Shown here piece by piece: positions 5,374-60,941 of a stretch of 64,000 nucleotides of DNA (within the stretch, counting starts at the first letter, position 1; each line of letters begins with the position of its first letter). The notes under the pieces are model-generated. The model saw only the letters and a program-made list of their open reading frames with translations, searched no databases and was not told the origin of the DNA. Source of the DNA: a virus. Where the stretch lies: IMG/VR virus record IMGVR_UViG_3300045988_072631; one strand, given 5' to 3'. A program made the translations under genes and the position numbers.

Positions 5374-6918
5374 ATGGCGAATCCGGGAAGAAAAATAATA
5401 TGGACTGATGAACCAGAAATTACATATGAAAATGTTATTGATGTTCTCCGGGATGCAATTCTTGTTCACACAGCGAACGCACAAAGAATCCAGTTTCTTT
5501 TAGATTATGATGGTGGAGATCAGCCGATCATACGAAAAAACCCAAAAACATACAGACCGGACATAGACTGCAGGTGCAATGATAATGTTGCACATCAGGT
5601 TTCCAACTTTTGGACTGGATTTGGTTGGGGAAATGCTATAACGCTTGTCCAGAACGGAGACGGGAAAGACCAATACGTATCGGATGGAATTTCTGAGCTT
5701 AACAAGCAATATGATCTGGTGAAAATCCGTGCGAAAACGCAGGAGCTTGGACGCTTTGTCGAAATTGGTGCATTGTGTTATGTATATGTTGATACAAACA
5801 TGAATTGGAGGGAAGGGAAAAGCTATTTTACGCTTGACATCCTAGACCCAAGAACATCTTTTGTAATCAGATCAAATTACTATCCTGACAAACGTGTAAT
5901 GCTTGGTGTTACTTATCGTTGTGATAAAAGAGGAATTAAGCATTATACATGCTTCACACCGGATGCCCGTTATGAAATCTCAGAATGGAAACATGCAGAA
6001 CGAAGCGGAGAGCTAAATCCGCTTGGCATGATACCAATTGTTGAATACATCAGATCGTATGATCGTATGGGTGTGTGGGAGCATCAGATTTCGGAGATGG
6101 ACAATCTTAATTTGCTCATTTCGGATTTTTCAAATGATGTTGAGCAAAACACGCAGGCTGTATGGCACGCAAACGATGTTGATTTTCCCGTTAAGCATGA
6201 AGTCATTGAAGAAAAAGACGGAACAAAGAAGTCCGTAGAGGAAGTTGTAAAACCTAAGTCCGGAGAATGGCTTAGTACATTCACTTCACCGGACGGAAAG
6301 ACTCCGTTTGTTAAAGCTCTGTCTATTGATTATGACTACGACGGAATGCTGAATGCGATACAATATCGCAGGAATAAAATTCTGGAAAAATGCAACGTTC
6401 CTCTCACAAGTGATAATGCATCAAACATCACAGGAGTGGCAGCGAGCAATGCTTCTGGATGGGATCATGCGGAAGCGGCAGCATCAAAACAGCAGATGAT
6501 CACAGAAAGCTGCAAACTGGAAGAGGTAGAAGTTGTTCTTGCGGCAATAGTAAACAATCCAAATCTTCCGGCTGACAGCCCGTTAAAGAAAATCACTCCG
6601 GCAGACATTGAAGTTAATGTGAAACGTCAAAAACTGTATGAGCTGTCAACGAAAGTAAACAGTGCTGTAACACTTATAAAAGCTGGATTTGACGGAGGAA
6701 AGATATTAAATACCATTCCGATTTTTGACGACCCAAATGAAGTGTGGGATGCCAGCAAAGAAATGGTGAGAAAAATCCAAAACAGCGGAATTTCTCAAGC
6801 CGCAAACACCGGGGACGATATAGAGCCGGAAAAACCAAATTCTGACAGGATAATGCAGGATTTATCAGATCAAGTTACAAACAGTCCGCTGATTGATAAA
6901 AGCAGAGCCGAGAAATAA
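5374..6918 (+). CDS. portal protein (SPP1 gp6-like)
   Basis: 514 aa. Lies immediately after terL and before the head-morphogenesis gene. Size and position are typical. Confidence 0.8.
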   Translation: MANPGRKIIWTDEPEITYENVIDVLRDAILVHTANAQRIQFLLDYDGGDQPIIRKNPKTYRPDIDCRCNDNVAHQVSNFWTGFGWGNAITLVQNGDGKDQYVSDGISELNKQYDLVKIRAKTQELGRFVEIGALCYVYVDTNMNWREGKSYFTLDILDPRTSFVIRSNYYPDKRVMLGVTYRCDKRGIKHYTCFTPDARYEISEWKHAERSGELNPLGMIPIVEYIRSYDRMGVWEHQISEMDNLNLLISDFSNDVEQNTQAVWHANDVDFPVKHEVIEEKDGTKKSVEEVVKPKSGEWLSTFTSPDGKTPFVKALSIDYDYDGMLNAIQYRRNKILEKCNVPLTSDNASNITGVAASNASGWDHAEAAASKQQMITESCKLEEVEVVLAAIVNNPNLPADSPLKKITPADIEVNVKRQKLYELSTKVNSAVTLIKAGFDGGKILNTIPIFDDPNEVWDASKEMVRKIQNSGISQAANTGDDIEPEKPNSDRIMQDLSDQVTNSPLIDKSRAEK

Positions 6919-23570: not shown

Positions 23571-23614
23571 GCAGTCAGTGGTTTATGGAGGTTCGATTCC
23601 TCCGGCTGCTTTTT
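23571..23614 (+). terminator. tRNA-like minihelix (acceptor stem + T-arm) acting as an intrinsic terminator
   Basis: GCAGTC...GGAGG-TTCGATT-CCTCC-GGCTGC followed by T5. No D or anticodon arms. Confidence 0.5.
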
Positions 23615-23666
23615 CAGTGGGATAGGGTAGCTACCGAAAGGCGAGACGACAGTCGCTTTCCCACTG
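23615..23666 (+). ncRNA. conserved three-way-junction RNA motif (copy X) in a 5' UTR
   Basis: P1 CAGTGGGA/TCCCACTG encloses TAGGGTAGCTACCGAAAG plus the hairpin GCGA..TCGC. Same architecture as 55917-55966 (-). Confidence 0.45.
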
Positions 23667-55916: not shown

Positions 55917-55966
55917 GTACGGAAACTGTTAGGACAAACAGCTTTCGGGAGCTACCCTATCCGTAC
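55917..55966 (-). ncRNA. conserved three-way-junction RNA motif (copy Y) in the 5' UTR of the HNH gene
   Basis: Minus strand: GTACGGA-TAGGGTAGCTCCCGAAAG-CTGTT..AACAG-TT-TCCGTAC. A TATAAT lies just upstream. Confidence 0.45.
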
Positions 55967-60535: not shown

Positions 60536-60614
60536 ACTTTTCCCTTTCTAGCCTGCCATCATCAGAGCCGGGAGGCTGTCCCGCGGCTGACGCTCCGATC
60601 TGGAGCGTTTCGGC

Positions 60615-60941
60615 TTAAAAATAAATATAAAAGCTGTTTCCGGTGCTGTTCCATTCTCTATCCAATATGGTGACTTTTGAAAGTCTGCCGATACATCCAT
60701 AAATTCCTGTAGCGTAGTATTCAGAATCAACCCGGCACCCTTTAGCGTTAGGAAATGATTTTTTAATTTCCTCTATAATTTCATTGACTTTATGGCAGCA
60801 GACCCCGCTTTCCTCGTTGAACGGCTCCAGCCGTGAAATATAGTGTTCTGCATTTTCAAACGTGTAGATATTGCACTGTAACTTGATACCGTCCATCATT
60901 TCGCCCATTCTGCAAAGTTCCTTGTGTGATAATTTTTTCAT
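60615..60941 (-). CDS. hypothetical protein (108 aa)
   Basis: ORF track; first gene of the minus-strand block. Confidence 0.5.
   Translation of the reverse strand: MKKLSHKELCRMGEMMDGIKLQCNIYTFENAEHYISRLEPFNEESGVCCHKVNEIIEEIKKSFPNAKGCRVDSEYYATGIYGCIGRLSKVTILDREWNSTGNSFYIYF

Follow-up and report, generated by a model that had tools for sequence, protein, structure and literature searches.

The window analysed here is a stretch of 64,000 nucleotides of viral DNA (IMG/VR record IMGVR_UViG_3300045988_072631) with a G+C content of 40.9%. It holds two copies of a structured motif, X and Y, which lie on opposite strands and each of which leads a protein-coding gene (Table 1). The gene led by copy X encodes a DnaD-like helicase loader or replication initiation protein, and this protein is homologous to other motif-led initiators. 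The gene led by copy Y encodes an HNH endonuclease with 33-38% identity to the products of other motif-led HNH genes. These labels come from PHROGs, and Pfam returned no match for either protein; an initial annotation, made from the sequence, had called the two genes wHTH and HNH, which is about right. Rha and Bro-N/ORF6C genes adjoin copy X. When 12 kb of the window were compared with phage records by megablast, no match was obtained, and a protein search with the window matched only distant human faecal phage contigs.

A scan of the window at Rfam gathering scores returned only a type II hammerhead ribozyme, which lies away from both X and Y. The match is full-length, with the CUGAUGA and GAAA core intact, and a stretch 83% identical to it occurs in one of the collected contigs (L305).

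Table 1. Coordinates of the features in the window, in the numbering of the whole stretch. L, loop of P3; C1 and C2, sites complementary to L; MFE, minimum free energy.
Feature	Position	Strand	Evidence or value
tRNA-like minihelix with UUUUU run, directly abutting P1 of copy X	23572-23614	+	sequence
Copy X, three-way junction	23615-23666	+	MFE of the junction -19.7 kcal/mol
Copy X, P1 (CAGUGGGA/UCCCACUG)	23615-22/23659-66	+	sequence
Copy X, core (UAGGGUAGCUACCGAAAG)	within 23615-23666	+	sequence
Copy X, J12 (UA)	23623-24	+	
Copy X, P2 hairpin	23625-35	+	
Copy X, J23 (GAA)	23636-38	+	
Copy X, P3 (GCGA/UCGC plus A-U and G.U extension)	23639-44/23653-58	+	
Copy X, loop L (GACGACAG)	23645-52	+	
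Copy X, C1 (UUGUCG), complementary to L, pseudoknot partner	23679-84	+	duplex -6.6 kcal/mol
Copy X, additional small hairpin (GUGC-AUGCAGGA-GCAC), between C1 and P4	23688-23703	+	
Copy X, P4 hairpin (AUAUCU/AGGUAU)	23706-25, loop 23712-19	+	-3.7 kcal/mol
Copy X, C2 (UGUCG), inside P4 loop	23714-18	+	L:C2 -6.9 kcal/mol
Copy X, Shine-Dalgarno GGAGG	23718-22	+	
Copy X, start codon	23730	+	63 nt past motif
Copy X-led gene, DnaD-like helicase loader or replication initiation protein, 334 aa	23730-24734	+	PHROG 6493, E 1.2e-13
Copy Y-led gene, HNH endonuclease, 271 aa	55053-55868	-	PHROG 374, E 9.7e-71
Copy Y, start codon	55868-66	-	48 nt past motif
Copy Y, P4 hairpin (ACACU/GGUGU)	55894-76	-	-3.1 kcal/mol
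Copy Y, C2 (AGGACA), in P4 loop	55886-81	-	L:C2 -8.1 kcal/mol
Copy Y, C1 (AGGACA), complementary to L	55903-898	-	-7.8 kcal/mol
Copy Y, three-way junction	55917-55966	-	MFE -17.5 kcal/mol
Copy Y, P1 (GUACGGA/UCCGUAC)	55966-60/55923-17	-	
Copy Y, core (UAGGGUAGCUCCCGAAAG)	within 55917-55966	-	sequence
Copy Y, J12 (UA)	55959-58	-	
Copy Y, P2 (GGG-UAGCU-CCC)	55957-47	-	
Copy Y, J23 (GAA)	55946-44	-	
Copy Y, P3 (CUGUU/AACAG plus A-U and G.U extension)	55943-37/55930-24	-	
Copy Y, loop L (UGUCCU)	55936-31	-	
Copy Y, TATAAT -10 box	55973-78	-	6 nt 5' of P1
Type II hammerhead ribozyme	60547-60615	-	54.7 bits vs gathering score 37, E 1.6e-08

A three-way junction in two versions

Both copies read as the initial annotation had given them, with the common core UAGGGUAGCU(A/C)CCGAAAG. 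When up to three mismatches are allowed, the 18-nt core occurs exactly twice in the window, against an expectation of 0.11, and two or more occurrences were obtained in only 1 of 100 shuffles. A covariance model built from relatives (R1), run with filters off, scores copy X at 53.2 bits and copy Y at 58.1 bits (E ~1e-12 to 1e-14); in the same run it found no third copy in the window, the next best match having 10.9 bits. It had also been correctly observed that X and Y have wholly different sequences in P1 (the closing helix) and in P3 (the second hairpin), and that both are still paired in each copy. In 105 members of the family, pairing in the three helices amounts to 96.3% (61.3% in shuffles), and changes on both sides are found at all 8 pairs of P1 and all 4 pairs of P3. 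The covariation score is 0.794; shuffles reach 0.157, and slid controls do not exceed 0.12. The motif is a folded single-stranded RNA three-way junction.

Some details of the junction differ from the original drawing, in which the 18-nt core was a GGG..CCC hairpin followed by GAAAG. The core is better read as two junction strands, UA and GAA, that flank P2. The second hairpin had been drawn two pairs short: the fourth A of GAAA(A/G) pairs with the last U before P1, and in both window copies P3 gains an A-U and a G.U pair. As a result of this extension, the true junction strands are UA, GAA and none. The pair at the base of P3 is A.C in 121 cases, G.U in 33, G-C in 13 and A-U in 12, and in the window it is G23640.U23657 (X) and G55942.U55925 (Y). 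This position looks like a preferred wobble-type pair, and a conserved pair of this type at a junction might bind a metal, a proton or a ligand.

P2 has the form GGG-N5-CCC with the loop U[A/C]GCN. Its sequence is over-represented in the collected relatives, and its conservation is inflated because two of the collection scans fixed the P2 sequence. The loops AGCU, ACGU and GAUC had prompted the idea of a kissing dimer formed through a palindromic P2 loop. This idea was rejected, since the loops found within fixed GGG/CCC stems (UAGCU, UCGCU, UAGCA, UAGCC and others) are mostly not self-complementary.

Relatives and the int-alpA RNA family

Hundreds of relatives were collected from viral and bacterial contigs, and their compensatory changes support the three-way junction. 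At least 120 loci, nearly all with the same junction, were obtained by scanning viral contigs with TAGGGTAGCTNCCGAAA, and at least 120 more by scanning bacterial genomes with the exact core TAGGGTAGCTCCCGAAA. Among the matches listed, the P1 helix is present at 109 of 121 bacterial core occurrences, and the hosts include Alpha-, Beta-, Gamma- and Deltaproteobacteria, Acidobacteriota, Nitrospirota, Nitrospinota, Planctomycetota, Spirochaetota, Bacillota and others. The motif-led genes are diverse, 95 of them falling into 55 clusters. They comprise replication initiators (DUF1376, HTH_36/DnaD-like), HNH and GIY-YIG homing endonucleases, and small moron-like or prophage genes; one motif-led protein of 962 aa we take to be primase-like.

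Copy Y and its HNH gene have their closest relative in a gut Alphaproteobacteria MAG (L240, CANRJO010000012.1, about 1513-1975). The two leaders are 80% identical and their tails before the start codon are identical; P1, P3 and the loop differ. In E. coli, a close relative is carried by a lambdoid prophage in 44 of 5426 complete genomes. It follows the lysis genes and precedes a DUF551 gene (L322, NZ_CM129871.1, locus 6001-6086), and the RefSeq annotation of this record has no ncRNA feature at that place. Second copies of the motif occur in the same phage contig at L012 1640-1693, L017 617-671, L002 5926-5980 and L034 3843-3896. These second copies differ in P2, where hairpins such as GGG-AAUCGCGA-CCC and CCU-UUAGC-GGG are found. 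A single phage can have the leader on several of its transcription units, as is also the case in the window. Other Rfam RNAs present in the collected contigs are HEARO (IscB-type omega RNA; L009 4332-4517, 90.2 bits), GP20-b (L001 4621-4676, 50.6 bits) and C4 antisense RNA adjoining isrK (L046 4306-4533).

The initial annotation did not recognise the motif as a known riboswitch or ribozyme. This part holds, as permissive scans to E 10 gave no match to any ribozyme or riboswitch family at X or Y; the motif nevertheless belongs with a known Rfam entry, RF02996, the int-alpA RNA. In a permissive Rfam scan, copy X aligns with the full RF02996 model (positions 1-71) at 22.7 bits (E 0.011), and copy Y gives no match to this model at E up to 10. 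Neither copy reaches the curated gathering threshold of 35.8 bits. Relatives with the same 17-nt core do so at 8 of 14 tested loci, with scores of 36.7-50.1 bits. Because these core-sharing relatives pass the gathering score, X and Y are sub-threshold, divergent members of the int-alpA RNA family. Three further loci, L006, L009 and L018, are also below the threshold; all have an A-U closing pair in P1, and in L006 and L009 this pair is accompanied by G.U at the P3 base. The variant represented by X and Y, which has both of these pairs, is under-scored by the Rfam model, and the int-alpA family is therefore under-annotated. A scan with the literal Rfam consensus of P2 (CTAGCCCN5GGGCGAAAA) was of no use: it gave 4 matches, none of them motif-like.

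The window copies share with int-alpA RNA the order P1-UA-P2-GAAA(A)-P3-(C)U-P1, a pseudoknot between the P3 loop and the 3' tail (CGACAG with UUGUCG in X, UGUCCU with AGGACA in Y), and the occurrence in phages and prophages. They differ from it in the closing pair of P1, which is A-U, in the base of P3, where G.U replaces A.C, and in the 3' junction, which is UU instead of CU. These departures in P1 and P3 are substitutions that keep the pair (C-G to A-U; A.C to G.U). A further difference lies in the genes that follow, as X and Y lead a replication initiator and an HNH endonuclease rather than an integrase or alpA, and the window copies do not lie in an integrase or alpA neighbourhood in Proteobacteria.

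The int-alpA RNA motif was described in a survey of 224 candidate structured RNAs (PMC5737381). No functional study of it was found in the literature searched.

The P3 loop has two alternative partners in the mRNA leader

A Shine-Dalgarno sequence and a start codon lie downstream on the same strand in 230 of 249 unique motifs (92%), in contrast to 37% of random positions in the same loci. The distance from P1 to the start codon has a median of 34 nt. This strand-specific placement, together with the compensatory changes in P1 and P3, bears out the original argument that the motif is a folded RNA and not a duplex site. An operator or recombination site in duplex DNA, bound by a phage DNA-binding protein, would suit the P2 region, which is near-palindromic as DNA, and the integrase and alpA neighbourhoods from which the family name derives. 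Such a site is scarcely credible, however, when P1 and P3 vary freely with pairing kept, including G.U pairs that are meaningful only in RNA, when the motif has a fixed orientation towards the gene that follows, and when the idea of a palindromic loop has failed.

Across the family, -10-like hexamers accumulate 1-11 nt 5' of P1. The element is probably a 5'-terminal mRNA leader, with a transcript start predicted from the -10-like hexamers only. In copy Y, the position of TATAAT before P1 (the spacing becomes 4 nt if two outer pairs are added to P1) means that the transcript would start at or next to P1; the promoter scan missed this box because a -35 element is absent. For copy X, the scan found no recognisable sigma-70 promoter, and this copy may be reached by read-through or exposed by processing.

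The minihelix that abuts copy X has a 6-bp acceptor-like stem (GCAGUC/GGCUGC) and a canonical T-arm, GGAGGUUCGAUUCCUCC. It was called terminator-like and has a weak tRNA-Sec match of 16 bits; ARAGORN reported no tRNA there. The minihelix may be a terminator, a decayed tRNA or tRNA remnant, or a processing signal, since related contigs have a real tRNA-Ser at this place. In four of them (L002, L017, L026 and L102), the motif begins 2-4 nt past the tRNA-Ser gene. In the same four contigs and in L280 and L297, an array of 4-5 tRNAs (Gln, Lys, Met, Tyr, Ser) ends 2-4 nt before the leader, which here is of the int-alpA type and heads a replication-initiator gene. With a tRNA array so close upstream, the 5' end of the leader could arise by tRNA 3' processing. 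As a general rule, tRNA adjacency was rejected: it is a property of one phage lineage, to which only the tRNA-like remnant before X can be added.

The initial annotation gave the element an extent of about 50 nt. The three-way junction is indeed there, but the element runs about 50-65 nt further downstream, through C1 and through P4 with C2, and the earlier coordinates therefore leave out its 3' portion. The initial annotation had also overlooked that the loop can form a pseudoknot with the tail, that a second complementary site lies at the ribosome binding site, and that the element probably stands at the 5' end of the transcript. Two direct repeats in the tail, C1 and C2, each have sequence complementarity to L, the loop of P3. 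C1 starts a median of 8 nt past P1, and C2 starts 8 nt past C1. From the end of C2 to the start codon there is a median of 7 nt, and C2 therefore overlaps the purines of the Shine-Dalgarno sequence. At least two loop-complementary sites of at least 5 bp are present in 151 of 221 non-redundant leaders, which contain 168 distinct loops; about 38 are obtained in the control, in which loops and tails are re-paired at random. Most apparent single-site leaders have a second site of 4 bp or a mis-called start codon. The mean best match with L is 5.29 for C1 and 5.62 for C2, compared with 3.41 +/- 0.16 and 4.42 +/- 0.12, respectively, for shuffled partners.

The loop bases used by C1 and C2 are 90% the same, and the two pairings therefore exclude each other. 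Their mean energies are nearly balanced, with -8.0 kcal/mol for L:C1 and -7.4 kcal/mol for L:C2, both being duplex estimates without tertiary or loop-closure terms. The geometry of L:C1 is that of a classical H-type pseudoknot: 0 nt separate it from the 3' strand of P3 in 128 of 151 leaders, about 2 loop bases are left free on the 5' side, and the linker is pyrimidine-rich. C2 lies in the loop of the hairpin P4 in 102 of 151 leaders, which makes L:C2 a loop-loop kiss; the Shine-Dalgarno purines are in the P4 loop and 3' strand. Both X and Y match this two-partner layout, with pairing energies (Table 1) that are likewise duplex estimates. In copy Y, C2 continues into the purine-rich ribosome binding site. 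The tail of copy X has 63 nt, compared with the family median of 34, because of the additional hairpin between C1 and P4.

A second complementary site that overlaps the Shine-Dalgarno sequence is a further difference from int-alpA RNA, as it lies outside the 71 positions of the Rfam model. As far as checked, this site, the exclusive pairings and the consistent leader position are absent from the Rfam description. Rfam types the family as 'Gene; sRNA', whereas the data here point to a cis-acting leader. A trans-acting sRNA of the Rfam type is one way to account for the element; another is a nascent RNA that, like put of phage HK022, is promoter-proximal and modifies RNA polymerase for terminator read-through, and copy X does lie just past a terminator-like hairpin. 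Neither idea predicts that the loop should be complementary to a ribosome site. Moreover, each loop matches its own tail and not a shared target, a start codon closely follows most copies on the same strand, and there is no terminator between the motif and the start codon, because P4 abuts the latter. We regard both ideas as very doubtful.

Self-cleavage is another reading. Some copies lie directly past tRNA genes, and theta (HDV-like) ribozymes occupy the same post-tRNA position. The element also resembles hammerheads (Rfam clan CL00010) in its three-way junction, in the GAA that is followed by a helix-opening A-U pair, and in its occurrence in phages, the window itself holding a type II hammerhead. 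A loop-to-tail pseudoknot, which hammerheads often use (PMC3088659), is common to both. A self-cleaving ribozyme of a new class or a degenerate relative of the hammerhead, which would process phage transcripts, is nonetheless highly unlikely. All copies have the UA strand in place of CUGAUGA, and between the extended P3 and P1 there is no unpaired nucleotide that would correspond to the cleavage site (H17, between stems III and I, in the hammerhead). The junction strands are 2, 3 and 0 nt long, compared with 7, 3 and 1 in hammerheads, and the pseudoknot joins other elements. Ribozyme families, the hammerhead among them, gave no covariance-model match at X or Y even at E up to 10, in agreement with the initial statement that the motif is not a hammerhead. 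In most copies the 5' edge coincides with the transcription start, so that nothing would be left for cleavage there to remove. A ribozyme also leaves C2 and its overlap with the Shine-Dalgarno sequence unexplained.

A candidate translational gate and its known counterparts

On balance, we consider it somewhat probable that both copies are cis-acting translational gates, which alternate between a pseudoknot that exposes the ribosome site and a loop-loop kiss that buries it. The gate would work as follows: The RNA would fold into a compact three-way junction in which UA and GAA are the only unpaired strands, and which would place P1 and P3 side by side. The 3' part of L could then pair with C1, about 8 nt past P1, to give an H-type pseudoknot stacked on P3 and possibly on P4. 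P4 would form directly next to it and present in its loop C2, the near-copy of C1 that overlaps the Shine-Dalgarno sequence. With L on C1, the ribosome binding site would lie open in the loop of P4, a weak hairpin, and translation would be on. With L kissing the P4 loop, the site would be buried in the kiss and in the P4 stem, and translation would be blocked. The conserved junction and the P2 hairpin may set the prevailing state or sense what sets it. The assignment of the on state to L:C1 is tentative; in ColIb-P9 repZ, it is a pseudoknot between a loop and a sequence near the ribosome binding site that activates translation.

The same fold could be a constitutive structural leader that does not switch. 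Its junction and pseudoknot would hold the 5' end in base pairs and so protect the mRNA from decay that depends on this end; the leader would also insulate the ribosome site of a mobile gene cassette from upstream sequence and display this site in a hairpin loop. In favour of such a leader, the motif is found at or near the 5' end of a transcript or just past a tRNA, and it precedes numerous moron-like and homing-endonuclease cassettes that are unrelated to one another. L:C1 has on average a slight energetic advantage over L:C2, and the topology, with its three-way junction, its pseudoknot between P3 loop and tail and its P4, is like that of flavivirus exonuclease-resistant RNAs (xrRNAs). In the latter, the loop of P3 in a P1/P2/P3 junction is paired just past P1, and a P4 hairpin follows. 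The likeness, including a P4 able to stack on the pseudoknot, is one of topology only, as there is no sequence similarity. Furthermore, the element lacks the 5' strand needed for the second pseudoknot and the ring of an xrRNA, and in its P4 loop lie both a complement of the P3 loop and the ribosome binding site. A ring of the xrRNA type was rejected: with -10 boxes 1-11 nt before P1, there is little or no upstream strand, and an RNA that begins at P1 has no 5' strand to thread the ring. No conserved complement of J23 was found upstream of X or Y. As for protection of the 5' end, a plain hairpin would be enough. A constitutive leader also leaves unexplained why a second complement of the loop is kept in the P4 loop across 168 loop sequences. 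We therefore think a non-switching leader improbable, although it deserves more weight than the sRNA, ribozyme and duplex readings.

Among the points that count against the translational gate are the heterogeneity of the downstream genes, which give no clue to a ligand, the Rfam typing of RF02996 as an sRNA gene, and the lack of a recognisable promoter at copy X. If the gate is regulated, the diversity of the genes that it leads speaks for a signal of a general kind or for a device that is purely kinetic, and not for feedback by the encoded protein. As in riboswitches, a structured domain in the 5' leader is combined with alternative pairing of the ribosome binding site; the gene associations offer no metabolic clue to what a ligand might be. 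A bolder proposal, which we make tentatively and hold to be rather unlikely, is that the int-alpA fold is the sensor domain of an unrecognised riboswitch-like class, present in more than 10 bacterial phyla and in phages, prophages and mobile cassettes. A ligand or a universal cellular factor would stabilise L:C1, the pseudoknot supported by the junction, and in this way free the ribosome site from L:C2. Genes for replication, homing endonucleases and integration would then be expressed according to the state of the host.

The int-alpA family is very widespread, and the layout found here makes the function of this orphan motif testable. Should the translational gate prove to switch under regulation, control at this point would be common among early and selfish phage genes, and the element would also be a compact and portable part for translational control.

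There is precedent for control at the ribosome site, as hairpins that sequester this site control the phage homing endonuclease genes I-TevI, mobE and segB (PMC3014915). In the ribosome-site hairpins of I-TevI and mobE, in the pseudoknot of ColIb-P9 repZ, and in pseudoknot riboswitches such as SAM-II and preQ1-II, as in the proposed gate, a loop or an upstream strand at the Shine-Dalgarno sequence decides ribosome access. The genes under translational control by alternative pairing likewise include homing endonucleases and replication initiators. The element differs from these systems in having no recognised ligand, antisense RNA or leader peptide, and in its architecture: the loop that opposes the Shine-Dalgarno sequence is borne by a conserved junction domain, and a decoy copy of its target, C1, competes for it.
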